Source: Bacteroidota bacterium (lineage in GTDB: Bacteria > Bacteroidota > Bacteroidia > B-17B0 > Aurantibacillaceae). From it: 33,688 nt of DNA. The notes beneath the pieces are model-generated. The model was not told where the DNA came from. It searched no databases and was given only the letters and a program-made list of their open reading frames with translations. Location of the stretch: positions 1 to 33,688 of the forward strand of contig JANYGR010000315.1 in NCBI GenBank assembly GCA_025359355.1, read 5' to 3'. Below, in pieces: positions 10,135 to 33,185 of the stretch (position 1 is the stretch's first letter; each line of letters begins with the position of its first letter). A program made the translations under genes and the position numbers.

Positions 10135-10153
10135 ATACTAAAATAGTCATTTT

Positions 10154-10222
10154 TTACATATAAATAGGGCATACTCGAGTTTTAGGCACAAAGGTTTTTT
10201 TGGAACACATATAATCTAGCAC
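10154..10222 (-). pseudogene. relic 3' end of a third PorP/SprF gene (last about 15-22 codons plus stop only)
   Basis: The reverse strand reads VLDYMCSKKTFVPKTRVCPIYM*, with an in-frame stop immediately upstream. The last 13 residues and about 45 nt match the 3' ends of both intact PorP/SprF genes (7364.. and 10768..). By manual alignment, 41/45 nt are identical to the 10768 copy. Confidence 0.65.
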
Positions 10223-10322
10223 TTAGTTGTAATTTAAACATTTTACGTTAGCTTTATTATAAGATTATTGCAACAAGATAAAATATACAAACATATTTAT
10301 TACTTCAGGGAAAAAATAGTTT

Positions 10323-10685
10323 ATGAAAAAAATAATAATTATAATAATTGCATCATTATTATTCCTTACGTATTTATATAATAATTTTTTTACAACAAGA
10401 ATGCTTATTGGTACTTATGTCAATATGAACTACAAAAATTCAATCGAAGATCCTAATATTCCTGACACATTAATACTTCTACAAAACAATACTTTTTCAA
10501 GTCAATACTTTGGAACAGGTAAATATTCATTAAGCTATTCAATATCAGGAAGTAAACTTAATTTAATTTTTGATGATGTTATTCATCAGATAAACATACA
10601 CCCTAATATCAAGAGAATTAATTTTAATCATACAAAAATTATTTTATGTTCTGATTTAAATCATTATTACGAAAAAATAAATTAA
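10323..10685 (+). CDS. hypothetical small membrane-anchored or exported protein
   Basis: 120-aa ORF with hydrophobic N-terminus (MKKIIIIIIASLLFLTYLY). It is the only plus-strand ORF inside the minus-strand T9SS island. Very AT-rich, no recognisable family. Confidence 0.4.
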   Translation: MKKIIIIIIASLLFLTYLYNNFFTTRMLIGTYVNMNYKNSIEDPNIPDTLILLQNNTFSSQYFGTGKYSLSYSISGSKLNLIFDDVIHQINIHPNIKRINFNHTKIILCSDLNHYYEKIN

Positions 10686-10767
10686 CACCGCGCTTCATCA
10701 ATACTCTGTAAGTTTGGCTCTTAAATATAATTTTATGTATACGTGAGCGCACTTTAAAATTACTATT

Positions 10768-11805: not shown

Positions 11806-14800
11806 TTACCTCAACAAGGTTATATTTCCTTTTTTAAACGATTCTTGTCCATTATTACATTTAAAGGTCATGTAATATCCATACACACCTTGATCTAGCT
11901 GCTTACCTTTAAATGTACCATCCCATCCGTTTTTGATAGTATTGGTTTCAAATAGTTTTTCACCCCAACGATCGTAAATAGTTAAATAGACTTCTGTAAT
12001 AAAGTTACTTCTAATATATAACACATCATTTATACCATCGCCGTTCGGTGTAAATCCTGTTGGCAAATACACAGTGCCTTCATCACAAGCGTCTGTTATA
12101 ATTTCTATAAAGACTGTTTTTAAAAAGTGCTTGCAATTATTTTGATCTGTAAAATAAATGCTGTATTCACCTGTTTTTGTTGGGGTAAACGTAATGGTAT
12201 TATTTCCGGTAAACGAAAAAGGCACATAAGGTGTAATACTTATATTTCCTGAATAAGTAAATCCATTTAATGTAACGGTAGCTGTTTGCCCAAGCGTAAG
12301 TGTAGAGGAGGAAACTGTTATAGAACTAGTATTATACGTAAAAGGAAAAACCGATACAGTCGTTGTTAATTGACTTTTACAAGTATCTGTTCCATTAATC
12401 GCACTAATAGTAACCGTATAAATTGTAGTAACTGGAGGAAATGCTTTAGGGTTTGAGATAGTCGCATTGGTGAGATACTGCGAAGGCGCCCAAGCATAAG
12501 TGACTCCTCCACTTGCAAATAGCTGAACAGTATCAGGTTCGCATTTAGATAGAGAGGCATTAACTGCAACTGGCGAAAACCCAGATAAATTAAGCACTTG
12601 TTTGCTCGTATCTTTACAACCAAAACTATTAGTTGCGATTAACGAAACAGTATACGTGCCCGTAGAACCATAGTAATATAAGGGGTTTTGAACACCACTG
12701 CTATTTCCATCTCCATAACTCCATTGCCAACTCACAGGAGTAAGAGTTGATGCATCTGTGAATTGAACATTGTTATTACAACCTCCGATACTATAGGTAA
12801 AGGATGATGTAATCTTTGGATAAACCGTTATAGAGGTGGTTAATGTTTTGACACAAACCTTTCCAAACAAACTATTTTGTAAAATGGTAACCGAATAAAT
12901 GGTGGTTGTTTGAACATTACAAGAGGGTGATGCGGAGAACGGATTTGATAAACCAGTTGTTGGCGACCAAGTATAGCTAGTGCCTCCAGACGCTTGCAAT
13001 AATTTAGTTTCGTAGGTGCATTTTGATTGATGAGGGTTAATCGTAATCGAATCTACAGGAACAAGTATGGTTTTGGAAATAGAATCCTTACACCCAAAGT
13101 TACTTGTTGCTACTAACTTCACCGTGTATGTTCCTGCGCTATTAAAGGATTTTGTGGTGTTTGTTGTTGAAGAAAAAAGCACAGAGTTCGCATACCATTT
13201 AAAAGTACTTGTCAATGGACTTGATGTATTATTAAATTGAACGTTATTGGAACACGAATCAACTGTTATCGTGAAATTAGCTACAGGCTTTGGATACACT
13301 GTAATAACAAGGCTTGCGGTGTCATATAAATTAGTACAAATAGAGGATTTCACATACAAATGAACAGTGTATGTTCCAGATGCTGTAAATGTTTTAACAG
13401 GATTAAATACTTGAGATGTTGTATCATTACCTCCAAAGTTCCACAGATAGGCGTGTCCGAGCGTACTGGTATTATTGAAATTAACGACTAATGGAGTGCA
13501 ACCGCTTAAGGTGTTTGCAGAAATATTAGCTTGCGCAGAGTTTAATTGAAAATCTATTTTAAATACGCCATTATTACAATTTGTAGATTGATTTACATTT
13601 GAGCCATACAACGATGTTGGCCAAGCACCAGGAGTAACAGGGAAATCATCGTTACCATTACAGCCAGCGCATACAGATTGGTAGATGATTCCTTTTTTAT
13701 CAAAACGGCTCGTGCCACCATCTACATGCTCGTGACTTGATGCGCCTCCAAAATAACTTCCAAACAATAAACCATTCATGTTTGGTCCAAGTACCATTAA
13801 ATAAAAATTATAGGCATCGGTTGTTGATTGTATTGGGTTTAACAAGGGCATTCCGGTGGTAGGATTTAAAAAAATAATATTTCCTCCCCAGCCAGATATA
13901 TAAACATTTCCAGCACAATCAACCGAAAAAGCTGATGGTGAAATATTGATGGTTCCATTTCCATTACCAAACACAGTAGCTGCCAACAATATATTTAATT
14001 GCGAATTAAACATTTGAATGAATTGTTTACTATTTGCATTCGAATAAACTCCAGCGGTAACAGGCATATTGCCTAAAGATTGTCCGTATAAATATACTTG
14101 TTGTTGTTTATCCAATTGTACAAAATAACTTTGATCGTAATCATTAGTGCCTATAAAACTTGAGTGCATCATACTCGACCCATTCGCTTTTATTTTACAC
14201 ACATAGCCATCACATTTTCCGCCACCATACACCGTATGATAACTGCCAACAGTAACAGGGAAATCAGCACTACGTGTTCCTCCTGTGATATAAATGTTTA
14301 ATGTATCATCTAACGCTAAAGAATAACCAGCATCATTGTCACTTCCTCCTATAAACGTGCTAAACACCAAACTACTAAGCGTATGGTTAAACTTAACAAG
14401 CACCGCATCTTGTTGTCCACCAAGTGTATTATCAATCGCGTTTTGTGTAGGAAAATCAGCCGACTTAGTACTACTATAGATATAAATATTATACAAACTA
14501 TCAACTTGTATTTCACCGCGGTATTGGTCTCCGTAATTATATTGCAATGAATCTGGCGGATATTCTGTAACTGTGCCGTAAGCAGACGTGTATGAAGCAA
14601 TCACATTATTATAGTTGATACCATCATTTCCAGAACCGCCAATGAAGGTAGATGCTAATAGAGTCGTTCCCGTCACATTTAGTTTGGCTATATAAATATC
14701 AGTACCTCCGTTAAACGTTGTACCATTAAATACAAAGGAAATAGAAGAGCCTCCGTTAAACGTATTGTCATAACAACCCAGGGTAGTAGGAAAATCAGAA

Positions 14801-15846
14801 GAGCCCGTTGCTCCATACAAACATAAATTGTCATTTTTATCAACGATTAAACTCGTCACAATTTCACTAGATCCAGCGCCACCTATATAGGTAGAGTATT
14901 TTAAAAACACTCCCGATGAATCATATTTCGTGATAACTACATCGGTATATCCTGGCAAACTATTAAAGCTAACATCATAAGCACCACTTGTTGTTGGATA
15001 GCCAATATCAAAACAAGTTCCACCTGTATACAAACTTCCACGAGAATCATAGGTCGCTGTCATACCAAAATTATCGGCAGTACTGCCACTCGAAGCTGCA
15101 AATACAAGCAAAGGATCGATAATCAAATCAATATTATGATCATACTCTTTTAATAATTTGAATGAAACGGTGTTTTTATCTAACACAAATTTGCTTGGTA
15201 TTTCAATCGTATCTCCTGCTATTATCTGATAAACAAAGGGTTTCTGTTCGATTGATTCGCTCACAGAAGTGCTAATATACAATGCCCCGTTTTTAAGCTT
15301 TATGTTTTCTATGCCTATATACTGCAACTTCACCGAGCCTGGATTTCCATCTGGATGTACAATAAAATTATACTTAATAGATTGGCTTCCTCCGTTATAA
15401 AGCGCGTCTATTCCTTGATATAGCCCTTTAACAGTGATGTTTTTATAATGATGTACTTGTTTTGCCCAACGTTTCTGATCAGATCCTATAAAGTAATTAT
15501 CATAATCTTCGTAAGCATGGCTTGATTCAATTTGTGGTAATGAATTAGATCCAATAAAATCAATACTATAAGCGTGGTATTTTAATGTGGGTGAAATTAT
15601 TTTCCCTAAATGTCTGCTTCTGTATGTATCCTTATCATATAAATGAAAAGTCAGTTTTCCGCTTTGTTCTACAAATAAGGCGCCGCCATCTAATTGTGCC
15701 CGGTATTTAATTTGATTATCCCATTGCTGCTTGTTTTCCGTAAACCGAACAAAGGATTGTGTCTGAGGATGAGGCGTTTTAACTCGCTGTGCTTGCCCGT
15801 ATAAACATATACTTACTAATATGATTATGATTTTCAGTCTATTCAC
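11806..15846 (-). CDS. large T9SS type-B sorting domain adhesin-like protein (SBBP beta-propeller repeats + 3 PKD domains + Ig-like ASGG modules)
   Basis: 1346 aa with a GTG start; an in-frame TAA lies immediately upstream. Signal peptide MNRLKIIIILVSICLYGQAQ. SBBP-type repeats (YSTYIGGAGSSE, ASTFIGGSGNDG, FSTFIGGSDNDAGYSLALD, DFPVT/DFPTT). PKD repeats (LWNFGGNDTT...GTYTVHLYV; WQWSYGDGNSSGVQNP...GTYTVSLIA). C-terminal FTPNGDGINDVLYI...YDRWGEKLF...GWDGTFKGK...GYYM...KKGNITLLR. Confidence 0.9.
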   Translation of the reverse strand: MNRLKIIIILVSICLYGQAQRVKTPHPQTQSFVRFTENKQQWDNQIKYRAQLDGGALFVEQSGKLTFHLYDKDTYRSRHLGKIISPTLKYHAYSIDFIGSNSLPQIESSHAYEDYDNYFIGSDQKRWAKQVHHYKNITVKGLYQGIDALYNGGSQSIKYNFIVHPDGNPGSVKLQYIGIENIKLKNGALYISTSVSESIEQKPFVYQIIAGDTIEIPSKFVLDKNTVSFKLLKEYDHNIDLIIDPLLVFAASSGSTADNFGMTATYDSRGSLYTGGTCFDIGYPTTSGAYDVSFNSLPGYTDVVITKYDSSGVFLKYSTYIGGAGSSEIVTSLIVDKNDNLCLYGATGSSDFPTTLGCYDNTFNGGSSISFVFNGTTFNGGTDIYIAKLNVTGTTLLASTFIGGSGNDGINYNNVIASYTSAYGTVTEYPPDSLQYNYGDQYRGEIQVDSLYNIYIYSSTKSADFPTQNAIDNTLGGQQDAVLVKFNHTLSSLVFSTFIGGSDNDAGYSLALDDTLNIYITGGTRSADFPVTVGSYHTVYGGGKCDGYVCKIKANGSSMMHSSFIGTNDYDQSYFVQLDKQQQVYLYGQSLGNMPVTAGVYSNANSKQFIQMFNSQLNILLAATVFGNGNGTINISPSAFSVDCAGNVYISGWGGNIIFLNPTTGMPLLNPIQSTTDAYNFYLMVLGPNMNGLLFGSYFGGASSHEHVDGGTSRFDKKGIIYQSVCAGCNGNDDFPVTPGAWPTSLYGSNVNQSTNCNNGVFKIDFQLNSAQANISANTLSGCTPLVVNFNNTSTLGHAYLWNFGGNDTTSQVFNPVKTFTASGTYTVHLYVKSSICTNLYDTASLVITVYPKPVANFTITVDSCSNNVQFNNTSSPLTSTFKWYANSVLFSSTTNTTKSFNSAGTYTVKLVATSNFGCKDSISKTILVPVDSITINPHQSKCTYETKLLQASGGTSYTWSPTTGLSNPFSASPSCNVQTTTIYSVTILQNSLFGKVCVKTLTTSITVYPKITSSFTYSIGGCNNNVQFTDASTLTPVSWQWSYGDGNSSGVQNPLYYYGSTGTYTVSLIATNSFGCKDTSKQVLNLSGFSPVAVNASLSKCEPDTVQLFASGGVTYAWAPSQYLTNATISNPKAFPPVTTIYTVTISAINGTDTCKSQLTTTVSVFPFTYNTSSITVSSSTLTLGQTATVTLNGFTYSGNISITPYVPFSFTGNNTITFTPTKTGEYSIYFTDQNNCKHFLKTVFIEIITDACDEGTVYLPTGFTPNGDGINDVLYIRSNFITEVYLTIYDRWGEKLFETNTIKNGWDGTFKGKQLDQGVYGYYMTFKCNNGQESFKKGNITLLR
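12346..13296 (-). repeat. intragenic tandem duplication of a roughly 158-aa two-domain unit (PKD + ASGG Ig-like module) within the 1346-aa adhesin
   Basis: Residues about 851-1009 and about 1009-1167 align colinearly: YPK..NNVQF..S...W......GTYTV.L.ATN/S.FGCKD...SKC...T..L.ASGG..Y.W.P...L.N...S.P...TTIY.VTI...C...LTT...V.P. Confidence 0.6.
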
Positions 15847-18347: not shown

Positions 18348-20012
18348 TTAAAATTGAAAATAAATAAACGGTTGCATTTCGCCACTAACTAATTGATAAA
18401 AACAAAATACAAATATGACCACCACTATACTCATAATAGGTAACGGTAAGTCTGCAAATTTATTACGGTAGGCTTCTTTAATCCGCTCTGGTATCCAATG
18501 AATTAAATAACCAATTGCCATAACTGAAAACACAACGGCATATCCTTTAATAATATTAAGTGTGAGTGCTGCTCCAAAATGGTTGTTGATCCTATCGAAA
18601 ATAAGGCTAACGGTTTCGAGGTTGTCGCTTCTAAAAAAAATACGTGTAAAGCTAATAAACGTTAGAGTTATCAAAACCAACATGCCTTTTACAAAAAATG
18701 AGTTCGTCTTTTTAAAGGGCGATATTTTTAGCCAAAGTTTATGTACAACTAATCCCAATCCGTTTAAGCCTCCCCAAATAATAAATAGCCATGAACTCCC
18801 GTGCCAGAAGCCTCCAAGCAGCATTGTTACTAATAAATTTACATTAGTATTAATGCTCTGTTTTACTTTTGGAAAAAAGTACGACAACAAAACAAATACA
18901 GTTGCTAAACATAACAAAACTAACAACAACCAAATTTTTCCTGTAAGTAATACTAACACAATGGATAAAAAAGCAATACAGATATATGAACCAATAGTGC
19001 CTTTTTTATTTCCTCCTAAAGGAATATATAAATAATCTTTAAGCCACGATGATAAAGAAATATGCCAGCGTTTCCAAAACTCGCTCACGTCTTGTGATTT
19101 GTAAGGTGATTTAAAATTTGTTTTTAATCTATAGCCTAACAATAACGCTACTCCAATGGCAATGTCTGTATAGCCACTGAAATCGGCATAAATTTGAAGA
19201 GAATATCCAAAAACACCAAACACAGTTTCTACACCTGAATAATAATTTGGGTTATCAAAAATACGATCGATATAATTAACGGCAATATAATCCGCTACAA
19301 TTTTTTTTCCTAAACCGTTGATGATCCAAAAAATAGCTAAGCCAAATTCTTTGCGCTTTAAATTATATGGTAAATATATTTGATACAAAAACTCGTTAGC
19401 CTTCACTATTGGCCCAGCCACTAAGTGCGGAAAGAAGCATACAAAAAAACCGTAATCAAAAATAGATTTAACAGGCGTTACTTTTTCACGATACATATCA
19501 ATGATGTATGAAATAGATTGAAAGGTGAAAAAAGATATTCCTACTGGTAATATTAATTTATCAATCGGATCTTTTGTTCCTAAAAATGTATTGCTAAACT
19601 GCGCGAAGTGATTAAAGAAATGAAAATCAGTTCCCGCTAATTGATTAGTGCTTTCGGTAAAAAAATAGGCATACTTAAAATAACACAGTAAACTTAAATT
19701 TATAATCATACTTATTGTTAAGTACATTTTTTTTCGGGCATCTGTTTTTGCTTGGTGTATCAGCCTTCCCCAGTTATAGTCGCTACAAATAGTGAAAATG
19801 AGTAATATTAAAAAAACACCGCTGGTTTTGTAATAAAAGAAAAAACTCACTAACAACAAATAAAACGTACGCAGTGTGTTTTTTTTATATAACAACGAAT
19901 AGATAGCCAATACAACGGCAAAGAATCCCCAAAAATACAGTTGCGTAAAAATCACAGGTTGTCCCTTCACATAAAGGAAACAGGATTTAAGATATGTTGT
20001 TATGTCATCCAT
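18348..20012 (-). CDS. MBOAT family O-acyltransferase (AlgI / PatA / DltB-like)
   Basis: Signature RWHISLSSWLKDYLYIPLGGN and a second His block GGFWHGSSWLFIIWGGLNG in a polytopic protein. I prefer the ATG at 20012 (MDDITTYL...). The track start at 20051 is a TTG lying inside a 16-bp hairpin. Confidence 0.9.
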   Translation of the reverse strand: MDDITTYLKSCFLYVKGQPVIFTQLYFWGFFAVVLAIYSLLYKKNTLRTFYLLLVSFFFYYKTSGVFLILLIFTICSDYNWGRLIHQAKTDARKKMYLTISMIINLSLLCYFKYAYFFTESTNQLAGTDFHFFNHFAQFSNTFLGTKDPIDKLILPVGISFFTFQSISYIIDMYREKVTPVKSIFDYGFFVCFFPHLVAGPIVKANEFLYQIYLPYNLKRKEFGLAIFWIINGLGKKIVADYIAVNYIDRIFDNPNYYSGVETVFGVFGYSLQIYADFSGYTDIAIGVALLLGYRLKTNFKSPYKSQDVSEFWKRWHISLSSWLKDYLYIPLGGNKKGTIGSYICIAFLSIVLVLLTGKIWLLLVLLCLATVFVLLSYFFPKVKQSINTNVNLLVTMLLGGFWHGSSWLFIIWGGLNGLGLVVHKLWLKISPFKKTNSFFVKGMLVLITLTFISFTRIFFRSDNLETVSLIFDRINNHFGAALTLNIIKGYAVVFSVMAIGYLIHWIPERIKEAYRNKFADLPLPIMSIVVVIFVFCFYQLVSGEMQPFIYFQF

Positions 20013-20041
20013 TTTATGACTCAAAAGACTAAAGAGATCGA

Positions 20042-20083
20042 AGAGAATCAAGAGACGACACAGATTACGTCTCTTGATTCTCT
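20042..20083 (-). promoter_or_regulatory. perfect 16-bp stem / 10-nt loop hairpin in the SGNH-MBOAT intergenic spacer
   Basis: AGAGAATCAAGAGACG (20042-57) pairs perfectly with CGTCTCTTGATTCTCT (20068-83). It lies 10 nt after the 20094 stop. The downstream minus-strand sequence is only moderately U-rich (UCGAUCUCUUUAGUCUUUUGAG). Confidence 0.5.
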
Positions 20084-20093
20084 GCTGTCCCTT

Positions 20094-21344
20094 TTATCTC
20101 TTCTGTCCTTCGTTTACTTTACTATTATATTTATAACTTCTATCAATGGCATCAAACATTAAACCAGCCAGTAGTTTATAGCCTCGTCCATTAAAATGCA
20201 CCTTGTCTTTTGCTGCTAATCCTGCTTTAAACCATTTATAAATAGATTTGTATCCACCCATCACCGCATATAAATCATACACTGCCGCTTTATGTTTTTC
20301 CATTAAATCAAACATGGCTTCTTCTGCCTTAATAGGACGTTTGTTAGATGTTTTGCGTTTGATATAATTATCCGTAGTCGTTGTAAATAAGATAGCACAA
20401 TGAGGGGCAGCTTTTTTTATTTGAGCAATTAAACTATCGTAGTTAGCAATAAATTCTTCCTTGGTGAAATTTTTACCTTGCGTATCATTAACGCCTAACG
20501 AAAAAATAACTAAGTCGGGAGGTATGCTTTTTAATTCGTTAACAAATTCGGTGCAACGTAAAAAAGAATTGCTACTTGCTCCGTTAACGCCCATTGCGGC
20601 ATAATAAAATCCAGGATTACTATTTTCAATACTAAAGCCTCTCAACATAAAATCACGATGATTTGTGTCTTTTCTAATCGCAACAAAATTTAAGGAGTCA
20701 ATATATGATTCGAAGGTAAACTCTGTATAACCTTTATCCTTAAAATCTTTTCTTTCAAATTGTAAGGTCGTTTCATGGTTAAGCGCTAATTCAAAACTCG
20801 GATTAAAATTATGATATACTTTTACTGAATTAAATGTTTTGTTGTGATTGTTGGGTAATAATTTAAAACCAAATGTTATTACGCTGTCGTTCGTAATACC
20901 TGCAATGCCAGCCATTCCCAAGTTATTACACATTTCTTTGGCTAATGCACAACGACATCTTTTCCAATGACCAGAAGTAAACGATCTAAAAAAATGAGGA
21001 CTGTTTGCGTGTACAATTGCAAACGGAAAAATAAATGTACCACCTCCTTCGTATTTATTTAATCCTTGAAAACCATCCATTAAAACTTCTGTCCAAAAAC
21101 CCGCTTGAATGTGCGAACCGCCATAATGAACTATATTTACTCGCTTTCGTTTACCTACTTTCAGTTCATCTATCTTTTTATAGAAATCCATAAATCGAGA
21201 ACTATCCTTGCTAAAATATAATTTACTTTGGTTAAGATTTATAAATGGTGGGAGTTGCGATTTTACTGTAGAGACAAGACTAAAGAGACATAAGACTAAA
21301 AAGGCTTTACTCACTATTTTAATTTCTATTTTAATTGTTTTCAT
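20094..21344 (-). CDS. SGNH/GDSL-like hydrolase or acyltransferase, exported
   Basis: 416 aa with signal peptide. Block I variant VHYGGSHIQAG, block III SLGVNDT, block V DKVHFNGRG (DxxH). Confidence 0.7.
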   Translation of the reverse strand: MKTIKIEIKIVSKAFLVLCLFSLVSTVKSQLPPFINLNQSKLYFSKDSSRFMDFYKKIDELKVGKRKRVNIVHYGGSHIQAGFWTEVLMDGFQGLNKYEGGGTFIFPFAIVHANSPHFFRSFTSGHWKRCRCALAKEMCNNLGMAGIAGITNDSVITFGFKLLPNNHNKTFNSVKVYHNFNPSFELALNHETTLQFERKDFKDKGYTEFTFESYIDSLNFVAIRKDTNHRDFMLRGFSIENSNPGFYYAAMGVNGASSNSFLRCTEFVNELKSIPPDLVIFSLGVNDTQGKNFTKEEFIANYDSLIAQIKKAAPHCAILFTTTTDNYIKRKTSNKRPIKAEEAMFDLMEKHKAAVYDLYAVMGGYKSIYKWFKAGLAAKDKVHFNGRGYKLLAGLMFDAIDRSYKYNSKVNEGQKR

Positions 21345-21395
21345 ATTGCCTGTATTGATCCCTGTATTCCCTTCAATCTCTATTGTCTTTTTAAT

Positions 21396-22844
21396 CTATT
21401 TTTTATTTTTCACAAACGCATTATAATCGTTAATCAACGAAGCATATAGCAATACAGCTATTTTGCGAGCGCCGCCTGAACTAAAATGAATGTAATCTTT
21501 TGCGCCAATTCCTTGCTCCACCCAGGTGAGCATACTGTTGTAGCCACCCATACAATTATACATATCAAAAAATGCGCAATCATATTCAAAAGCTGTTTTT
21601 TTAATGGCATCTCGCAAATTTTCCAATTGAGGATGCGTCACATAATCCGCTACTTCTTTCACACTCATATCTGCTGGACCAATAACGAGTATAGATGCTT
21701 GAGGCGCTAATTTTTTAATAGTGGCTATTTGTACTTTTAAATACAATCCAAAATTATCAGCCTGTTCTTTTGTTTTAATATATGGCAATGCGTTTCCTCC
21801 AAACTGAAGGATGATTAATTTTGTATTGAGGTAATCATAAAAATTTTTAAGCTGAGTGAAATTAATTTGATTAAAAAAAGTTCCTGAACTGCCTCGTAAT
21901 CCGAAATTATCTACCATGACTCCTTTTCCACTTTCGAGCGAAATACCATAAAAATCAGGGCTATCCTTGCCTTTAAATTTAAACTCATGTAATAAAGCTG
22001 GTTGATTCAAATTAAATTCTTTGATGTTAAAGTTTCCTCCACTTACTAATGAATCCGAATTATTTAACGAACCATTTTCATATAATTCCACATGGGTTTT
22101 GGTTTGTGCTCCCCCATAAAATAATTTTATTTTTTTATATGCACCAGCCTTCGCCCCACCATTCTTACTCGTCACTATTTTTACCCAAGCCGATTTATAC
22201 TGAGTCGTATCAGATAACGGCGCATAATTATTAAAACGAGTGAAGTGTGCTAATGCTCCAAAATTAGTATGCTTCACGCGCTTATCTTTACCAGCAAATA
22301 CACAATATCTATCCCAATTAGTACTCCACGACATTTTATTAACCACACTTGGTGCCACAGGCATAAACGACACGAGCCCTGGGCCTTCGCCACCATATAA
22401 GTTTTGTAATTTTAATCTCAGATAATCACTAATCCGATCGCCCTCTATTTGCGAATCACCATAATGGAGAATCCGAATACTTTTTTCTTCCTTATTGATG
22501 TTAGATAAGGAATTAAAAAAATTAGCTAAAGCACTTTTGGTTGCGTTTTTATATTGTATGCTTGTGTTTAATTTGACAGCGGTATCTTTTAATTCTATGG
22601 CTGTTATTTCCTCAACTTCCGAATTGCTTTCAGTCACCTTTTCTTCTGCATCTGCTAAAGCGATAATGGCTGAAATATCTTTTTTTACTTCTTTCTTAGC
22701 ACCAAAAAGCGAATGCACGGTTGGATAATGAATACTATATGATTCGGTAATATAAAAACCCTTCTCAGGAAACACCATACTTATAGCACCTAACATCATA
22801 AATGTTAATCCTAAAAAAAGTAATGTGTAAAACGGCTTATGCAT
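21396..22844 (-). CDS. SGNH/GDSL hydrolase or acyltransferase with N-terminal membrane anchor
   Basis: 482 aa. Block I ILHYGDSQIEGD, block II LQFGGNAL, block V DYIHFSSGG. N-terminal hydrophobic helix FYTLLFLGLTFMMLGAISMVF. Confidence 0.8.
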   Translation of the reverse strand: MHKPFYTLLFLGLTFMMLGAISMVFPEKGFYITESYSIHYPTVHSLFGAKKEVKKDISAIIALADAEEKVTESNSEVEEITAIELKDTAVKLNTSIQYKNATKSALANFFNSLSNINKEEKSIRILHYGDSQIEGDRISDYLRLKLQNLYGGEGPGLVSFMPVAPSVVNKMSWSTNWDRYCVFAGKDKRVKHTNFGALAHFTRFNNYAPLSDTTQYKSAWVKIVTSKNGGAKAGAYKKIKLFYGGAQTKTHVELYENGSLNNSDSLVSGGNFNIKEFNLNQPALLHEFKFKGKDSPDFYGISLESGKGVMVDNFGLRGSSGTFFNQINFTQLKNFYDYLNTKLIILQFGGNALPYIKTKEQADNFGLYLKVQIATIKKLAPQASILVIGPADMSVKEVADYVTHPQLENLRDAIKKTAFEYDCAFFDMYNCMGGYNSMLTWVEQGIGAKDYIHFSSGGARKIAVLLYASLINDYNAFVKNKK

Positions 22845-26655: not shown

Positions 26656-27228
26656 TTGAGTTCATTTTCACATAGCGAAAAAGAGTTTGTTCATAATGAA
26701 TATGAGCAAAAGCTACATCAATTTAAAGATGCTCAAACAGTGCTTGTGTCTCATTATGGCATGCTTTCTCAGGATGTTATTTCTAAAATTGAAAGTGAAG
26801 TTGAAAACGTAGTATCCTTTTTAGAAATACCGAAAGGTCCTCTTAAAAAAATATTTTTTATTAGTGTAGAAACGCTTCAAAATATGCTCATACATGGGCA
26901 AAAAAGTGGCGAAGGAGACCAACCAAACTTCTTTATCGTTTCTAAAAACGGTGTGAAAATAGATATCGTCTCTGCTAATTTAGTAGGAAACAACTCTATA
27001 CCCGCTTTAGAAAAACAAATAGAAGTTATCAATTCATTTGAAGATGAAAAAGCCCTAAAAGCGTATTATTTAGAACACTTAGAAAACAATCAATTAAGTG
27101 ATAAAGGTGGGGCTGGCTTAGGTTTCATTACTATCGGTATGAAAAGTGGTAATAAATTAAAAGTAGAATTCAAGAAAATAAATGATAAAATGTCTTTATT
27201 CATTCTTAATTCTACTATTAGTCTTTAA
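26656..27228 (+). CDS. SiaB-like / GHKL-type small kinase-like protein
   Basis: 190 aa with a TTG start (no in-frame ATG nearby). The C-terminal SDKGGAGLGFITIGMKSG resembles the glycine-rich ATP-lid of SpoIIAB/SiaB-type serine kinases. This is a family call from memory, not from a search. Confidence 0.5.
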   Translation: MSSFSHSEKEFVHNEYEQKLHQFKDAQTVLVSHYGMLSQDVISKIESEVENVVSFLEIPKGPLKKIFFISVETLQNMLIHGQKSGEGDQPNFFIVSKNGVKIDIVSANLVGNNSIPALEKQIEVINSFEDEKALKAYYLEHLENNQLSDKGGAGLGFITIGMKSGNKLKVEFKKINDKMSLFILNSTISL

Positions 27229-27282: not shown

Positions 27283-27750
27283 ATGAAAAAACGATTTTCA
27301 CTCAAAAAAATTAGTTTAATTCTCGCTATCACATTATTATTTATTCAATCCTTCCGTATTGATAAATCTACCAAACCAGTTGATGCTTCAAAAGATTTAA
27401 TTTCTTTAACAATTCCAAACGCGGAAGTAACTCAATTATTAAAAACAGCTTGTTACGATTGTCATTCCAACCAACCCACCTTTCCATGGTATACTAATAT
27501 TGCGCCTGTATCTTGGTGGATTAAACATCATATAGATGAAGGTAGTCATCACCTTAATTTCTCTGAATGGGGAACTTATGAATTAAAAAGAAAAAATCAC
27601 AAACTTGATGAGTGCGTTGAAATGCTTGAAAAATATGAAATGCCCATGTCTTCCTATACATGGATGCACCAAGAAGCAAAACTAACGGATGCCCAGCGTT
27701 TATTGTTAGCAGAGTGGTTTAAAGGTTTAAAAGAAAACAGTCCTTCATAA
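27283..27750 (+). CDS. heme-binding domain-containing protein (c-type CXXCH)
   Basis: 155 aa with an N-terminal anchor or signal. CYDCHS is a CXXCH motif, followed by WYTNIAPVSWWIKHHIDEG..HLNFSEW, typical of the Haem_bd family. Confidence 0.8.
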   Translation: MKKRFSLKKISLILAITLLFIQSFRIDKSTKPVDASKDLISLTIPNAEVTQLLKTACYDCHSNQPTFPWYTNIAPVSWWIKHHIDEGSHHLNFSEWGTYELKRKNHKLDECVEMLEKYEMPMSSYTWMHQEAKLTDAQRLLLAEWFKGLKENSPS

Positions 27751-27757
27751 TTTTTTT

Positions 27758-28116
27758 TTACATCTCTGTTTTTACTCCAAACTCCTGAGCTTTTATAGCT
27801 AATTGCAATTCCAGTAAATCTTTTTTTCTTATAACAAACGTATCGCTCCATTTGTCGTGCCACCCCAATTCGCTTAAACAAGACAAGGATTCAAAAGGAA
27901 CAATTCGGCTATACGACCTACCAACAATTTGCTTTAAAGTTGGTTTTTTTCGTATTCATTTACCACAACTCTTCCTAACATTAATTTAGCAGGTGAGTTT
28001 TGTAATCCATATTCAAAAATAATATAATAGCCAGGATATAAAACGAACCAAAAGATTAATCCGTTTAATATATTAATTAAAAATAAAAAAAGGTTATTTT
28101 TTAATACAAGTAACAT
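27758..28116 (-). pseudogene. RDD-family-like membrane protein gene interrupted by a 1-nt frameshift in a homopolymer (T7 on the plus strand, 27944-27950)
   Basis: The 60-aa ORF (28116-27934) ends ...NSPAKLMLGRVVVNEYEKNQL*. The adjacent frame is open from 27955 to the stop at 27758 and reads IRKKPTLKQIVGRSYSRIVPFESLSCLSELGWHDKWSDTFVIRKKD.... An A8 run instead of A7 on the coding strand would fuse them into a roughly 124-aa protein. That protein would carry RDD-like GK.l.G.rVV and HD...T.V motifs. Confidence 0.5.
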
Positions 28117-28633
28117 TTATGTTAATTGTTACATTATCTGAAAGAATGAAACTGGAAGTGCCTACCTTAAAATCTAAGCGATTAAGGGTAAAATTACCTG
28201 CAAATTTTGCTTGGCCGTTTTGTTCGGTATACATAAAAATGATCGGAATAATTTTACTCACGCCTTTAACAGTTAATGTAAAAAGGCCTTTAAACCTTCC
28301 GTCTGGCTCTTTTGTAAAAGAAACGGCGCTCATATATATTTTATCAAACTTTTCTACCGAAAAGTATTCTTCTTTTTTTAAATGCCCGTCTCGGGTTGAA
28401 TTATCTGTGTTTATGGTATTTGCATAAATGTTTACATCTATTTTATTGCCGGAGTTTTTGGTTGCATCAAACTGAATAGTACCGTTTAATCCACCAAAAA
28501 ATCCATTAACTGTAAAACCTGCATTTTTTATTTTAAAACTTATGTTCGACGAAGAAATTTGCCATGCTTGATTTTGTGCAGTTCCGTTTAGAACAAAAAA
28601 TATAAGTAGAATAGAAAAAATTATTTTTTTCAT
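28094..28633 (-). CDS. YceI family (polyisoprenoid-binding) periplasmic protein
   Basis: 179 aa with signal peptide. ISFKIKNAGFTVNGFFGGLNGTIQFD and NSTRDGHLKKEEYF are typical YceI-like motifs. Confidence 0.85.
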   Translation of the reverse strand: MKKIIFSILLIFFVLNGTAQNQAWQISSSNISFKIKNAGFTVNGFFGGLNGTIQFDATKNSGNKIDVNIYANTINTDNSTRDGHLKKEEYFSVEKFDKIYMSAVSFTKEPDGRFKGLFTLTVKGVSKIIPIIFMYTEQNGQAKFAGNFTLNRLDFKVGTSSFILSDNVTININVTCIKK

Positions 28634-28643
28634 AATTATAAAG

Positions 28644-29774
28644 TTAGAAAGATTTTCCGTGTGTTAAAGCAATTATTTTTTGAGTAAACGAAGGCAATTT
28701 ATTTAAAGCTTTCAACGTAAAATGAGTTGTATGTTTTTTGCCGAATAAATATTGTAAATAATAACCAGTTTTTATACGCGTGTTAAAATTTTTATTCCAC
28801 TCATTATTATACTTATGTATTAATTCTTGTTTTGAAATAGCGCCATTAAAATAAATAACTAACAAATTTGATGCTAGTTTAGAGGCTTTCATAGCAATAC
28901 TCATCCCATTTCCGCAAAGCGGAGTGATAGAACCTGCCGCATCACCAACTAAAAGAAAAGGATTTTTATATGTGTCTTTTTTTTGAAAAAAAACATTACT
29001 GATAACTAATGGTGCATCGTAAAGAAATTCAGACTCGGTAAAATATTTTTTTAAAAAAGGGTTTTTAAACAAAATAGTTTCTTCCATTTTTTTGATGTCG
29101 TTTCCCGCTTGTTGCAGGTTTTTGGAGCTAGATAAATAACACAAGCAATGCGTATCGTTATCTACTTTAGAAACACCGCAATAACCATCTTTAAAGTTGT
29201 GTAACTCTATTCTATTTGAATTTAAATTAGTTTTAATATGATACTTCACTCCAATGTAATTTAACTTTTTTGACTTTTGTATTTCGTCATCCTTTACAAA
29301 AGCAGGCGTGTATTTCCCGTATGTTCCGCAAACAAATTCAGCCGTATAATGGCCAAGCGATGTATTTATTTGATAACTATTTTCTATTTTTTTTACGTCA
29401 AATACTTTACAATTATCTAATACGGTTATGTTTTTTGTAAGAGCTAATTCATATAAATAATTATCTAAACTATATCTACTAATGCCAAAACCTCCAAGGG
29501 GCAGTACACTATTTAACATAAATCCATTTTCGGAAGAAATGCCTAATTCGTTTATTTTTGGAAGATTCATATCCGCCAAAGGCAAGCCCAATTCAGTTAG
29601 AAAATTCCAACTTTCCATAGATATGTATTCGCCGCAAACTTTATGAAAAGGGTATTTGTTTTTCTCAAACAATATCACGTTGATTCCCTTATCCGCCAAT
29701 TGAATAGCCAAGCACAAACCCGCTAAGCCACCGCCAATTATAGCGCATTGATATGTTTTATGATTCATTTCCAT
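28644..29774 (-). CDS. FAD-dependent oxidoreductase / monooxygenase (geranylgeranyl-reductase / UbiH-like fold)
   Basis: N-terminal dinucleotide fold AIIGGGLAGLCLAIQLADKGINVILFEK and GDAAGSITPLCGNGMS motif. The track start (29780) is a TTG; ATGs at 29774 or 29768 are more likely. Either way the start overlaps the methyltransferase stop. Confidence 0.85.
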   Translation of the reverse strand: MEMNHKTYQCAIIGGGLAGLCLAIQLADKGINVILFEKNKYPFHKVCGEYISMESWNFLTELGLPLADMNLPKINELGISSENGFMLNSVLPLGGFGISRYSLDNYLYELALTKNITVLDNCKVFDVKKIENSYQINTSLGHYTAEFVCGTYGKYTPAFVKDDEIQKSKKLNYIGVKYHIKTNLNSNRIELHNFKDGYCGVSKVDNDTHCLCYLSSSKNLQQAGNDIKKMEETILFKNPFLKKYFTESEFLYDAPLVISNVFFQKKDTYKNPFLLVGDAAGSITPLCGNGMSIAMKASKLASNLLVIYFNGAISKQELIHKYNNEWNKNFNTRIKTGYYLQYLFGKKHTTHFTLKALNKLPSFTQKIIALTHGKSF

Positions 29775-30453
29775 ATACAATGACTTCGTGTCTAAATGCC
29801 CATTTATTTTTTACCGAACACTTTGTAACACCTGCTTTAATAAGAATATTAATCCATTCATGCTTTTTAAAACCACGTGCAACCGAAAGTGCCGCATCGT
29901 TTTTTACTAAATAGGATTTAGAAAATAATTTTGTTAAAATTTTAATAGCGTAATAGGCAAACGCATTTCTTTCAAGATCGTTTATAATTAAAATCGCTTT
30001 ATTTTTCTTTGCAAACCTCACCAACTCTATCAATTCTGCTTCCGATAAATGATGGCAAAACAAACACGCATGAATAACATCTACTTGTTTAAGATGATCG
30101 AAAATATTTCTATAATCATCGCAAATATATTGTATCGCCTCACCTGATGTGTTTTGAGTAGCATATTCAATGCATATTGGTTTTATATCTACGCCAAATA
30201 AATTAAACTGTTGTTTGTTTTTCTTTGCCCAATTATTAATGTGTTTTAAAGTATCACCGCCACCACAACCAATATCAACTAACGAATAAGTAGTGTTTGG
30301 TTTAATTATTTTTTTAAGTGCAGAAAAACTAATGTTATATCCACCCAGTAAGGTATTAATTGTGTCTAATTCTTTTATGTTTTGAAACAAATCTTCTTTC
30401 AAAATATCATCTCCATCTAATAATTCTTTTAATTGACTTCGGTGTTTAAGCAT
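29758..30453 (-). CDS. class I SAM-dependent methyltransferase
   Basis: 231 aa with motif I LVDIGCGGGD. Its ATG overlaps the PKS stop by 8 nt (ATGCTTAA). Confidence 0.85.
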   Translation of the reverse strand: MLKHRSQLKELLDGDDILKEDLFQNIKELDTINTLLGGYNISFSALKKIIKPNTTYSLVDIGCGGGDTLKHINNWAKKNKQQFNLFGVDIKPICIEYATQNTSGEAIQYICDDYRNIFDHLKQVDVIHACLFCHHLSEAELIELVRFAKKNKAILIINDLERNAFAYYAIKILTKLFSKSYLVKNDAALSVARGFKKHEWINILIKAGVTKCSVKNKWAFRHEVIVYGNES

Positions 30454-31528
30454 AACTAAGTTGCATAGTTTCTATACTTAAACCCGGACCAAACGCTGCC
30501 GAAAAAATGGTTTCTCCTTTTTTAGGATGTAGATTTTTATCTACTATTTGTTTTAAAACAAACAATACAGTTGGTGATGACATATTGCCATAATTCTTTA
30601 GCACATCATACGATTCGGATGCCTTTGACTTATCTAAATTCAGCGTTTCAAAAAAATCATCTACAATTTTTTTACCTCCCGGATGTATAGCCCAATGATT
30701 TATTAAGGTTGTATCAATTTTTAAAGAGTCCATCATTAACTTAATGTTTTCTTTAATTAAAGTAGATACATAAGAAGTCAGATTCATGATAAATCCAGTT
30801 TCTGATAATTGCCAAGCCATATCATTATAGCCGTTATGAAGTATTAACGAATTAAACGAATTTATTTTTAATACATGATTGCTTTCAGGAGCTTTTGCCG
30901 TTACTAAGGCTGCTGCACAGCCATCGGCAAACAACATGTTAGAAAGCAGGTAATCATCATTGAATTTTTTTTGAAAATGCAGTGTGCATAATTCGGTACA
31001 CACAATTAACACCTTCGCGTTTATTTCACTCTTGCAAATCATGTCAGCATTTTTTAAGGCTAATATAGCTGCATTACATCCCATAAAATTAATGCTGCTT
31101 CGGCTAATACTTGGATTTAGATTTAAATTTCTTATCAATTCAATATCTAAACCCGGCGCAAACATACCGGTACAAGTTACTGTAATTAAGTGGGTAATAG
31201 ATTGTTTTATTGCATCTATACTTTTAATCTTTTTAACTGCATTTACTGCTAGTTTAATGGCTTCTTCTCTGTATATAGTCATTCTTTTTGACAAAGAAGG
31301 TTCTGGAGTTAGTGATTGGTTTTTTTCGTAAAACTCAAATTTATCGTACGGTAAACTATAATCTTTTAAAACCGAATAACGAGTTTCTATACTAGCTTTA
31401 TCAGATATGATTTTTATTTTTCGTTTAATTGAATCATCTTCTGTTGCATTAGAAAAAAACTCGGCAAATGCTTTTTTAGTATGACAATGCTTAGGTACTA
31501 CGGTTTCTATGGCGACTATATAACTCAC
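30446..31528 (-). CDS. type III polyketide synthase (chalcone/stilbene synthase superfamily)
   Basis: 360 aa with a GTG start. Catalytic triad contexts are present: VTCTGMFAPGLD (Cys), IHPGGKKIVD (His), YGNMSSPTVLFVL (Asn). The start overlaps the UbiA stop by 1 nt (TAGTG). Confidence 0.9.
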   Translation of the reverse strand: MSYIVAIETVVPKHCHTKKAFAEFFSNATEDDSIKRKIKIISDKASIETRYSVLKDYSLPYDKFEFYEKNQSLTPEPSLSKRMTIYREEAIKLAVNAVKKIKSIDAIKQSITHLITVTCTGMFAPGLDIELIRNLNLNPSISRSSINFMGCNAAILALKNADMICKSEINAKVLIVCTELCTLHFQKKFNDDYLLSNMLFADGCAAALVTAKAPESNHVLKINSFNSLILHNGYNDMAWQLSETGFIMNLTSYVSTLIKENIKLMMDSLKIDTTLINHWAIHPGGKKIVDDFFETLNLDKSKASESYDVLKNYGNMSSPTVLFVLKQIVDKNLHPKKGETIFSAAFGPGLSIETMQLSYA

Positions 31529-32427
31529 TAATTTTTATTTATAAAATATAATGTAATAAAACAGGCGTTCATACAAATTGCTGCAATGCTATTCATGCGC
31601 ATGGTGTTTTTAAAATTTGCTTCGCTGTTATTTTTGTAAACCATATAAAACCAATATGCAAAATAAGCAACTATAGGAAAAAAGAATAGTTGAATGATAT
31701 AAAAATTCATTTCACGATTTATTAAATTAAAATGTAAAAAATAAAATACGTTGCATATAAAAAACATACAAGCTGTAAAAATAAATGTACCGATATAACC
31801 CAGCTTATAACTTAATGTAATCACGCCATCATTATAATCTTGTTTGTGCTGATACACTTGGGTTAACGGGTAAGCACCTGCAATTTGAAATGAGCAACCC
31901 AGCAATAAAAACAAGGTAGCTTTATGGATGGTTAATACGTGGTTTGCAACACCTAAATATGCTGTATAATAGGTAAATGCACCTTGGAAAAAAACTACAA
32001 GCAGAAATCCATAATACGGATATTTTTTTATCCTAATTTGTTTTGAACTATATGCCCGAGATGCCAAAATGTAACCTAAAATGCACAATGCAAAGAGTGG
32101 ATTAATTAAAATAAAAGATAAAATCACAGATAATAAATCCATTGCCAACGTTGTGTAAAATAGTTTTTTTGTCGGCATAGGAGGTTTTTCTAAACCCCCT
32201 ATTGGGCCCTCGTCTCTATCAATATAGCTATTGTATCCATTGCTGGCAGGATACACCAAAAAATGTATAATAAAAAAAGAAAAGCATGCTTTGTAAATTA
32301 CTACTTCTGTAGATTGGCTAAGTGCAAATAAAAACAAAGGCATTAAAAAAAAAGAGAAAGGAAATCTCAGTAATTTTATTGTATTTTTATCAAACAGCAT
32401 ACATACAAATTTACGTATATAAACCAT
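31528..32427 (-). CDS. UbiA family prenyltransferase (membrane-embedded)
   Basis: 299 aa, 8-9 hydrophobic helices. First Asp-rich motif region ASNGYNSYIDRDEG, second acidic motif YQHKQDYNDG. The true start may be the internal ATG at 32400 (MLFDKNTIKLLRFPF...). Confidence 0.75.
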   Translation of the reverse strand: MVYIRKFVCMLFDKNTIKLLRFPFSFFLMPLFLFALSQSTEVVIYKACFSFFIIHFLVYPASNGYNSYIDRDEGPIGGLEKPPMPTKKLFYTTLAMDLLSVILSFILINPLFALCILGYILASRAYSSKQIRIKKYPYYGFLLVVFFQGAFTYYTAYLGVANHVLTIHKATLFLLLGCSFQIAGAYPLTQVYQHKQDYNDGVITLSYKLGYIGTFIFTACMFFICNVFYFLHFNLINREMNFYIIQLFFFPIVAYFAYWFYMVYKNNSEANFKNTMRMNSIAAICMNACFITLYFINKN

Positions 32428-32759
32428 TTTCTTCTGCTATATTTTCAACTTTTATGCCAATAGCAATTAAAATCATAACAACTGGAACCGCAAGAACTAT
32501 CGTAAACATATAATTAAAATAAAAGATCTAACATATAATTTCCAACCTCGGTCAACCAGTAATGGTAAAAACTTCCCTAAACCTCGTAAAAGTTTTTTCT
32601 CAAAAGTGTCCCGCTCTTATGGCACCTTTCACACGAGTGTTTTTATATACGTTTCCTATCCTTTTGTGATTTTAGTTTTCGTATTCATACCCCATTTATA
32701 AACATTTATATTACTAAATCAAACGAGTAGCGATTTATAGGTAATGAAGCCATAAAATA

Positions 32760-32791
32760 TTTGCATGCCTACCATAAAAGTGGTATTTTTG
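32760..32791 (+). promoter_or_regulatory. putative Bacteroidota sigma-A type promoter for the suf operon
   Basis: TTTG (-33-like) at 32760-63, a 20-nt spacer, then TATTTTTG matching TAnnTTTG (-7 element) at 32784-91. It lies about 68 nt upstream of the 32859 ATG. Confidence 0.4.
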
Positions 32792-32858
32792 TATTCAATT
32801 TAGATTTAATCTAATTAAGAATAAGAACCAATTAACTAACCATTAATTACTTAGGAAA

Positions 32859-33185
32859 ATGATAACAGTAAGTAACGCCGCAAAAGAGCACGCTATCAAT
32901 TTAATCAAAGAAGAAAATAAACCAGTAGATACTTTCATTCGAGTGGGTGTAGATGGAGGGGGTTGTTCAGGATTAATGTACAATTTAGTGTTTGATAATA
33001 TATTAAAAGAAGGTGATCAATTATTTGAAGATAATGGCGTAAAAGTAGTGGTTGATCGTAAAAGCTTTTTATACTTAGTAGGTACCGAATTAGATTATAG
33101 TGGCGGATTGAACGGTAAAGGATTTATTTTCAAAAACCCAAATGCAACACGCTCTTGTGGTTGTGGCGAATCATTCTCAGTTTAA
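32859..33185 (+). CDS. sufA: iron-sulfur cluster assembly accessory protein (HesB/IscA/SufA family)
   Basis: 108 aa. GGGCSG and C-terminal CGCGESF cluster-ligand motifs. Immediately upstream of sufB. Confidence 0.85.
   Translation: MITVSNAAKEHAINLIKEENKPVDTFIRVGVDGGGCSGLMYNLVFDNILKEGDQLFEDNGVKVVVDRKSFLYLVGTELDYSGGLNGKGFIFKNPNATRSCGCGESFSV

Follow-up and report, generated by a model that had tools for sequence, protein, structure and literature searches.

What is produced by an operon in which a prenyltransferase of the UbiA family, a type III polyketide synthase (PKS), a methyltransferase (MT), a flavoprotein dependent on flavin adenine dinucleotide (FAD) and a YceI-like protein are encoded one after another? 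This question is raised by a contig of 33,688 nucleotides from a Bacteroidota bacterium of the family Aurantibacillaceae (GenBank assembly GCA_025359355.1, contig JANYGR010000315.1), the whole of which is referred to here as the window. The list of open reading frames (ORFs) and the reverse-strand sequence revealed five co-oriented and tightly packed genes at positions 28094-32427 (-), encoding UbiA, the type III PKS, a class I MT, the FAD flavoprotein and YceI in that order. We propose that this locus is probably an operon whose enzymes build a phenolic membrane lipid, part polyketide and part isoprenoid in origin; the product would most probably be a methylated, prenylated alkylresorcinol or hydroquinone. 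The basis in hand consists of the enzyme families, the intact catalytic motifs, the gene order, a gene fusion and the recurrent recruitment of YceI. The domains that an earlier note on this DNA had assigned to the five genes were borne out by Pfam and NCBIfam profile searches, and the motifs quoted there were all present (DIGCGGGD in the MT, IIGGGLAGL and VGDAAGS in the flavoprotein, and the Asp-rich motifs in UbiA).

Conservation of the four-gene core

A scan with one genome per species identified at least 575 loci encoding relatives of the window PKS, and the best 80 were kept for comparison. All of these 80 loci whose records name a taxon belong to Bacteroidota. Searches by tblastn with the window proteins found the order UbiA-PKS-MT-FAD kept in 68 of the 80 loci, or 68 of the 71 with enough sequence, nine of the remaining 12 being cut by contig ends. 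Since this order recurs in 68 of 80 loci, the gene adjacency is not due to chance. The overlaps between the PKS and MT genes and between the MT and FAD genes also recur in almost all loci. The core order spans Cytophagales, Flavobacteriales, Chitinophagales, Saprospiraceae and others, with hosts that include Dyadobacter, Cytophaga, Fluviicola, Flavobacterium, Haliscomenobacter and Sediminibacterium, and it is carried by the model organism Cytophaga hutchinsonii. The earlier note had proposed a co-conserved operon of five genes; this held for the four-gene core, which is no random adjacency, but not for YceI: of the 66 loci with sufficient sequence, 21 had its gene in the flanking DNA retrieved.

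The PKS, MT and flavoprotein genes were found adjacent and co-oriented in Bacteroidota, Paracoccus, Sphingobium and Deinococcus, so that this trio is a widespread recurring module of Bacteroidota, Proteobacteria and Deinococcus; in the last two it is found with no UbiA. Modules with a homologous MT and flavoprotein and with no UbiA occur in Paracoccus, Sphingobium and Psychrobacter, and their existence fits the view of a core phenolic-lipid module to which prenylation was added. Among the Bacteroidota loci, L015 has the trio with no trace of UbiA. The loci L079 and L080 8001-9900 (Emticicia and a Cytophagaceae metagenome-assembled genome) encode a divergent PKS (about 50% identity) and a longer MT (37% identity) with neither UbiA nor flavoprotein, and by these features appear to be a different type of type III PKS cluster in the same phylum.

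Clustering of the flanking ORFs revealed no further gene family recurring across lineages, the large clusters being Dyadobacter-specific synteny or antisense shadow ORFs. In other lineages, a DoxX-like domain is fused to the N-terminus of UbiA, and the core is flanked by genes for a DM13 domain protein, a nitroreductase-family protein, a thioredoxin-like protein, a Crp-family regulator and a LysE transporter. The most complete of these arrangements is that of L088 4460-11610 (protein P0190), which reads LysE, Crp-family regulator, DM13, a DoxX::UbiA fusion of 418 aa, PKS, MT, FAD, nitroreductase-family protein and thioredoxin-like protein. In L016, L043, L063 and L073, too, the core has DM13, DoxX and nitroreductase genes beside it.

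Fusion of UbiA and PKS in Dyadobacter

In 20 Dyadobacter genomes, the UbiA frame continues into the PKS without a stop, giving one in-frame ORF of about 652 aa. The RefSeq entry WP_149244224.1 (652 aa), annotated as 'UbiA family prenyltransferase', contains both PF01040 and the chalcone-synthase domains. The fusion is found at L005 7128-9086 (protein P0361), and also in L006-L009, L012, L017, L020, L021, L026, L029-L031, L033, L035-L038, L041 and L046. On the PKS tree the fusion clade is monophyletic save for one nested unfused species (L019). The TTG start codon of the PKS is still inside the fused frame, and a separate PKS may therefore still be made from it. No other evidence here speaks as strongly as this fusion for UbiA and the PKS working in one pathway, and a functional tie between the two is supported by co-conservation and fusion together. 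Additionally, a natural UbiA::PKS fusion offers a handle on how a substrate is handed from a soluble PKS to a membrane prenyltransferase.

Proposed pathway and its precedents

In the pathway that we propose, the type III PKS would load a fatty-acyl unit supplied by primary metabolism, lengthen it with malonyl-CoA and cyclise it to an alkylresorcinol with a long side chain, an alkylpyrone being the less likely outcome. The class I MT would then methylate the ring, and the flavoprotein would most likely hydroxylate it to give a methoxy-alkylhydroquinone that could be oxidised to the benzoquinone. The membrane-embedded UbiA would move a prenyl chain from a prenyl diphosphate to a ring carbon or oxygen, and in the periplasm the secreted YceI, where present, would bind either the finished hydrophobic lipid or a prenyl intermediate.

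The agq cluster of Actinoplanes missouriensis reportedly has its UbiA gene last, and that of the window has it first. As judged by comparison of the enzymes encoded, this agqABCD, and not srsABC alone, is the closest characterised system. It encodes a type III PKS that makes alkylresorcinols, a monooxygenase, an MT and a membrane UbiA-like prenyltransferase, which together yield 6-alkyl-4-O-dihydrogeranyl-2-methoxyhydroquinones (PMC10896814, PMC3569393, PMC4044012, citing Awakawa et al. 2011, ChemBioChem 12:439), the alkylresorcinol being hydroxylated, O-methylated and, by the UbiA-like enzyme, O-prenylated (PMC3569393, PMC10896814, PMC4044012). The same four kinds of enzyme are thus in one cluster, with the oxygenase role of the window flavoprotein being putative, and the product of the window operon is predicted to resemble this class of products. 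The agqABCD cluster differs in belonging to Actinomycetota and not Bacteroidota, in having no YceI, DoxX or DM13 accessory gene, and in having no UbiA-PKS fusion; the physiological role of its products is given as not known (PMC10896814). The earlier note reasoned that a trio extended by UbiA points to a phenolic lipid carrying a prenyl group. This was right in outline, and agqABCD, which it did not cite, is an experimental precedent for it.

The order PKS-MT-oxidoreductase of the window is also that of srsABC in Streptomyces griseus and of pkqABC in Mycobacterium smegmatis and Streptomyces sp. MNU77, where methylated alkylresorcinols are hydroxylated to alkylbenzoquinones (PMC9927152); these clusters differ in having neither a prenyltransferase nor YceI. 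The Pkq quinones are alternative respiratory electron carriers in mycobacteria and Streptomyces spores (PMC9927152). The same trio, including an alkylresorcinol-forming PKS, is found in hidABC of picocyanobacteria and in MT-oxidoreductase-PKS operons of Planctomycetota, and is widespread in a phylum (PMC8086630, PMC10896814). Srs, Pkq and Hid trios lead to methylated, hydroxylated alkylresorcinols or quinones (PMC9927152, PMC8086630). The Hid and planctomycete operons differ in that the PKS comes last and that a prenyltransferase or a binding protein is rare, with one Raphidiopsis cluster having an added prenyltransferase (PMC8086630) and the 'Saltatorellus ferox' operon an added lipid/isoprenoid-binding protein (PMC10896814). 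In Bacteroidota, by contrast, the clusters as a rule include UbiA. The planctomycete flavoprotein had no detectable activity when heterologously expressed (PMC10896814).

Several points weigh against the pathway as proposed. We infer the chemical steps, their order, the prenyl length, the choice between C- and O-prenylation and the ligand of YceI, the pathway being read here from its genes. The likeness to the Agq, Srs, Pkq, Hid and planctomycete systems is drawn at the level of gene and enzyme kinds. The window contains no prenyl-diphosphate synthase gene and no acyl-activating gene. Judged by its motifs, the flavoprotein is not a recognisable hydroxylase; its Cys-Gly-Glu and GDAAG motifs are typical of geranylgeranyl reductases (GGR), and it might reduce a double bond instead. 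The trio of Deinococcus has a different, GDAAH-type flavoprotein, and the 'trio' is therefore not one homogeneous system. YceI is missing in two thirds of the loci. Finally, nine helices in UbiA, with the canonical topology and cytoplasmic Asp-rich loops, would bring its predicted C-terminus to the far side of the membrane. This is difficult to square with a fused cytoplasmic PKS, as a PKS outside the cytoplasm would have no malonyl-CoA.

The cannabinoid and daurichromenic-acid pathways of plants run, by analogy only, from an alkyl-resorcinol or resorcinolic acid made by a type III PKS through aromatic C-prenylation by a UbiA-family enzyme to a flavoenzyme step; they differ in being eukaryotic, with unlinked genes, a flavoenzyme like berberine bridge enzyme (BBE) and short alkyl chains. 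A full-text literature search found no paper on the Bacteroidota cluster, on type III PKSs of C. hutchinsonii or Dyadobacter, or on a UbiA-PKS fusion, and the earlier remark that this architecture has no characterised product in Bacteroidota agreed with the literature searched. The prenylation logic itself, a type III PKS phenolic lipid combined with UbiA, is already known, since agqABCD makes O-prenylated methoxy-alkylhydroquinones. The features that the Bacteroidota system has of its own are the divergent UbiA subfamily, the unusual flavoprotein subfamily, the optional periplasmic YceI and the natural UbiA::PKS fusions. In a survey of Flavobacteriaceae, type III PKS clusters were the second most frequent class of biosynthetic cluster (9%; PMC7440613), and the literature searched gave no product assigned to such clusters in Bacteroidota. 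The conservation described here shows that many of the common Bacteroidota type III PKS clusters share one four-gene core with a dedicated divergent UbiA, and carriers of this core that are cultured or genetically tractable include Cytophaga hutchinsonii and Dyadobacter.

Methyltransferase and flavoprotein

The MT gene (29758-30453, -) encodes a class I SAM-dependent enzyme of 231 aa that matches the Pfam families Methyltransf_25/31/11/12/23 and contains the DIGCGGGD motif. It scored 125 bits against NCBIfam PRK06202, below the cut-off of that model, and is 27-28% identical over its full length to MTs adjoining type III PKS genes in Paracoccus and Deinococcus.

Of the five proteins, the flavoprotein (28644-29780, -; 374-378 aa, varying with the start chosen) has the least clear assignment. 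Its N-terminus is an FAD-binding Rossmann domain matching Pfam FAD_binding_3, Pyr_redox_3 and DAO. Across 29 homologues the invariant residues are H44-x-V-C47-G-E-Y, G197-Y-C-G200 and G277-D-A-A-G281, which define a subfamily that can be written 'KxCGE ... GYCG ... GDAAG'. An AlphaFold2 model (pLDDT 85) gave near equal Foldseek TM-scores of 0.70-0.81 to halogenases, to hydroxylases of the p-hydroxybenzoate hydroxylase (PHBH) type, to UbiI, to PqsL and to the Thermoplasma GGR 3OZ2. The earlier description of this protein as an SrsC-like hydroxylase was right as to an FAD oxidoreductase; a clear SrsC-like identity was not found, as the best NCBIfam match was to the GGR superfamily TIGR02032, at 88 bits against a cut-off of 158.8, and the fold does not discriminate.

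The alternative that survives best keeps the pathway and makes the flavoprotein a GGR-like enzyme that saturates a double bond of the prenyl chain. In place of a hydroquinone or quinone, the operon would then yield an alkylresorcinol that is methylated and prenylated, its tail being partly reduced. We consider this product unlikely, although several points speak for it. GGRs are characterised by a Cys in an xCGE/G motif, by GDAAG and by an aromatic YxWxFP motif. The window flavoprotein has an invariant Cys47 in the context H-K-V-C-G-E together with the invariant GDAAG, TIGR02032 came out ahead of any monooxygenase model, and homologues carry the JGI label 'menaquinone-9 beta-reductase'. The products of Agq also bear a reduced geranyl group (PMC3569393). 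However, the score lies below the family cut-off, the aromatic motif is replaced by G-Y-C-G-x-S-K-V, and the fold fits hydroxylases equally well. Members of the same 'KxCGE' subfamily are also encoded beside type III PKS genes on plasmids of Paracoccus, Sphingobium, Novosphingobium and Psychrobacter that have no UbiA nearby, and there a reductase would lack its prenyl substrate. Provided that the subfamily serves a single function, a prenyl chain cannot be needed for it, and for this reason ring hydroxylation is favoured as the likely role of the enzyme over side-chain reduction, which we regard as a lesser possibility.

A paralogue of the flavoprotein, 37% identical, lies on plasmid pHsw1 of Hymenobacter swuensis (L082 2048-7062) directly after an isonitrile-synthase-family gene and a TauD/TfdA dioxygenase gene, with no PKS. 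The flavoprotein subfamily thus appears to be used in another kind of biosynthetic cluster as well.

Polyketide synthase

The PKS gene (30446-31528, -) encodes 360 aa from a GTG start. The protein matched Chal_sti_synt_N with 103 bits and Chal_sti_synt_C with 82 bits (Pfam cut-off 27), and aligned end to end with its three best solved relatives, stilbene synthase, Steely1 and PKS18. Cys151, His282 and Asn315 fall on the catalytic positions of these three enzymes and are invariant in 12 homologues. The catalytic triad claimed for it was therefore confirmed by alignment, and by these residues the enzyme is catalytically intact. At least 8000 database proteins matched it at E<=1e-20, a lower bound set by the scoring of 8000 candidates, and every match that carries a name is from Bacteroidota.

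An alkylpyrone synthase, closing its product by lactonisation as PKS18 and ArsC do, would turn the operon into a source of prenylated or methylated alkylpyrones in place of resorcinol-derived lipids. This is suggested by the presence of the pyrone synthase PKS18 among the three best solved relatives and by the JGI label 'alpha-pyrone synthase' on several homologues, but these labels are automatic. An invariant Trp239 of the window PKS aligns with Gly256 of chalcone/stilbene synthase, a position that may well be that of Trp281 in ArsB. Trp at this cavity position of ArsB has been linked to resorcinol formation, and Gly is found in the pyrone synthase ArsC (PMC9927152). ArsC (Gly284) was not among the PDB matches listed for the window PKS or for a proteobacterial query. 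Additionally, the MT and flavoprotein partners are those of resorcinol-to-quinone pathways (PMC9927152, PMC8086630). An alkylpyrone is in our judgement an improbable product, and an alkylresorcinol is preferred.

Prenyltransferase

The UbiA gene (31528-32427, -) has a longest ORF of 299 aa and a likely start at ATG 32400, which gives 290 aa. The protein matched PF01040 with 62 bits (cut-off 34). Its sequence found no match in the PDB, and a fold search was used in its place. The AlphaFold2 model (pLDDT 89.6) has nine long helices and matched AfUbiA (4TQ3/4TQ4) with TM-scores of 0.68-0.72, as well as DGGGP synthase, UBIAD1 and ApUbiA, so that the UbiA fold is confirmed at the level of the model. 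The first Asp-rich motif, N66-x3-D70-x-D72, is a variant of NDxxDxxxD conserved in 72 of 72 homologues. In the second, D197 is present in all 72 and D200 in 90% of them, while N63 and the central residues R124, Y126, R132 and K134 are conserved in at least 95%.

Grouping with MenA or heme O synthases was the outcome that the earlier note had named as speaking against a dedicated role for this enzyme. No NCBIfam model for the MenA, UbiA or CyoE-COX10 equivalogs was among its matches at E<=0.01, and the sole NCBIfam matches were to BchG/ChlG, with 23-26 bits against cut-offs above 200. A phmmer search found relatives in 704 cluster representatives at E<=1e-3 among 1.84 billion, and from this number the protein is taken to belong to a small, distinct and divergent subfamily that, by its sequence, is not a MenA, UbiA or heme-O-synthase housekeeping enzyme. 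A tblastn search of plasmids with the UbiA protein gave no match.

It could be argued that UbiA is merely co-transcribed and serves another prenylation, such as a quinone or lipid-carrier step, the product then being an unprenylated phenolic lipid of the Srs/Hid type. PKS-MT-flavoprotein modules without UbiA do occur in other phyla, and L015 is a Bacteroidota example. Against this, UbiA is directly upstream with stop and start overlapping in 68 loci from several orders, it shares a single reading frame with the PKS in 20 genomes, and its subfamily is small, distinct and without a housekeeping equivalog match. In the Agq precedent, moreover, a UbiA-like enzyme prenylates polyketides of this sort (PMC4044012). 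A separate role for UbiA is on these grounds very improbable, and prenylation of the polyketide is retained as the proposed step.

Flavin-dependent halogenases are marked by a WxWxIP motif and a conserved catalytic Lys. That the flavoprotein is such an enzyme and the product a halogenated phenolic lipid is the least credible alternative. The pyrrole/phenol halogenases PltA, Mpy16, Bmp2, ChlB4 and CndH head the PDB matches by sequence, which were weak, and by structure, and hierridin C is chlorinated by an unidentified enzyme (PMC8086630), but a halogenase identity is rejected on the motifs, as there is no WxWxIP and the position expected for the Lys is not conserved (consensus LPxIxQLGI), and hydroxylases and GGR gave nearly equal TM-scores.

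Another UbiA-like enzyme without a housekeeping role, EboC/Ubi-297 of marine Flavobacteria (about 299 aa), is likewise the product of an operon conserved in Bacteroidota (PMC9235831). It is encoded in an eboA-E cluster with a TatD-like hydrolase, a 3-dehydroquinate-synthase-like protein and a TIM-barrel protein, and farnesylates quinoline acids in vitro (PMC9235831). By gene context the two systems differ, with no ebo gene in the window and no PKS in the ebo cluster, and an EboC/Ubi-297 identity for the window UbiA was set aside because no ebo gene is present (PMC9235831).

Other members of the same UbiA subfamily have additional C-terminal regions. In P0506 (920 aa) this is a YdbH-like domain, of a family named for intermembrane phospholipid transport, and in P0402, P0441 and P0467 (about 500 aa) there are extensions of about 200 aa with no Pfam match.

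Accessory YceI protein and a possible redox lipid

The YceI gene (28094-28633, -) encodes a lipid/polyisoprenoid-binding-like protein of 179 aa that matched PF04264 with 93 bits (cut-off 23.7). Its N-terminus, MKKIIFSILLIFFVLNGTA/QNQ, is by inspection of the sequence a Sec signal peptide. The best solved relatives were 'polyisoprenoid-binding protein' chains (5W2X and related entries), followed by 3HPE, E. coli YceI (1Y0G) and TT1927b (1WUB). On a neighbour-joining tree of the PKS, the loci with YceI immediately after the flavoprotein gene fall into at least four separate clades, that of the window among them. YceI is directly upstream of UbiA in the Saprospiraceae/Haliscomenobacter clade and one other locus, and a few kb away in several further loci. 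No YceI gene was found in any of the 30 Dyadobacter loci or in C. hutchinsonii. Since the adjacency recurs in differing positions across lineages, the pattern argues for an optional and not a core component that would yet be functionally linked to the pathway.

A bolder extension of the proposed pathway is that its product is a prenylated polyketide benzoquinone/hydroquinone serving as a redox lipid of the Bacteroidota envelope. The head group of such an isoprenoid quinone would derive from a type III PKS instead of from chorismate, with YceI handling the periplasmic side and, elsewhere, DoxX (fused to UbiA), DM13 electron-transfer domains, the nitroreductase-family flavoprotein and the thioredoxin-like protein taking part. 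We regard this extension as doubtful; the redox associations of several flanking families lend it some colour and are not evidence of function. Should the product prove to be a quinone, the question would arise whether bacteria understood to rely on menaquinone possess a second electron carrier, of polyketide origin, as has been reported for mycobacteria and Streptomyces (PMC9927152). If it were only an envelope phenolic lipid, it would be a useful and unsurprising extension of Agq/Srs chemistry to another phylum.

Operon layout and neighbouring genes

The overlaps of 1, 8 and 11-17 nt and the 10-nt spacer that had been claimed for the five same-strand genes could all be read directly in the reverse-strand sequence. 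UbiA and the PKS have 1 nt in common, the UbiA stop TAG giving its G to the PKS GTG. At the PKS/MT junction, ATGCTTAA, the stop and start overlap by 8 nt. The MT/FAD overlap measures 17 or 11 nt with the two FAD ATGs (29774 and 29768), and 23 nt with the TTG at 29780 that begins the longest ORF. A 10-nt spacer separates the FAD stop from the YceI ATG. The fixed stoichiometry proposed in the earlier note is a prediction from these overlaps. The UbiA proteins of relatives are 288-291 aa long and their alignment begins at about residue 10, for which reason the true start is probably ATG 32400 and not 32427. A 32-aa hydrophobic ORF at 32411-32509 (-), MFTIVLAVPVVMILIAIGIKVENIAEENGLYT, shares 17 nt with the beginning of the longest UbiA ORF. 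The close relative L004 has no such ORF ahead of its UbiA gene, and this one is unlikely to be a gene.

The sole long non-coding gap at the operon border is the 431-bp intergenic region 32428-32858, between the operon and a divergent iscA/erpA-like gene, and it is presumed to hold the operon promoter. A scan of 27700-33000 for sigma-70 promoters and terminators, which does not model Bacteroidota promoters, found sites no commoner than in shuffled sequence. G+C content is flat over the operon (0.28-0.32, against 0.27-0.41 in the window), and no compositional mark of recent transfer was seen in this profile. Scans of the window for tRNAs and Rfam families gave no match.

On the other side, a gene at 27283-27750 (+) encodes a protein of the Haem_bd family (PF14376) that has a hydrophobic segment at its N-terminus and a CxxCH motif (CYDCH). 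The gene is convergent with the operon and ends 343 bp from the YceI stop. As an operon member it was rejected, no tblastn match covering at least half of the query having been found in any related locus. The gene at 26656-27228 (+) encodes a SiaB-family protein-kinase-like protein (DUF6272; NCBIfam NF038262, 101 bits, above the cut-off), and no SiaA/SiaC-type partner was recognised adjoining it.

Further away in the window, 18348-22844 (-) encodes an MBOAT-family membrane O-acyltransferase followed by two GDSL-family proteins, which may form a module for O-acylation of a polysaccharide or lipid. In the region 7364-15846 (-), a gene for a large secreted protein is paired with a PorP/SprF gene twice in succession. 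These secreted proteins carry PKD domains and CHU_C type IX secretion signal domains, one of them also having DUF7948 and beta-propeller repeats, and the pairs resemble typical cargo-partner modules of the Bacteroidota type IX secretion system.

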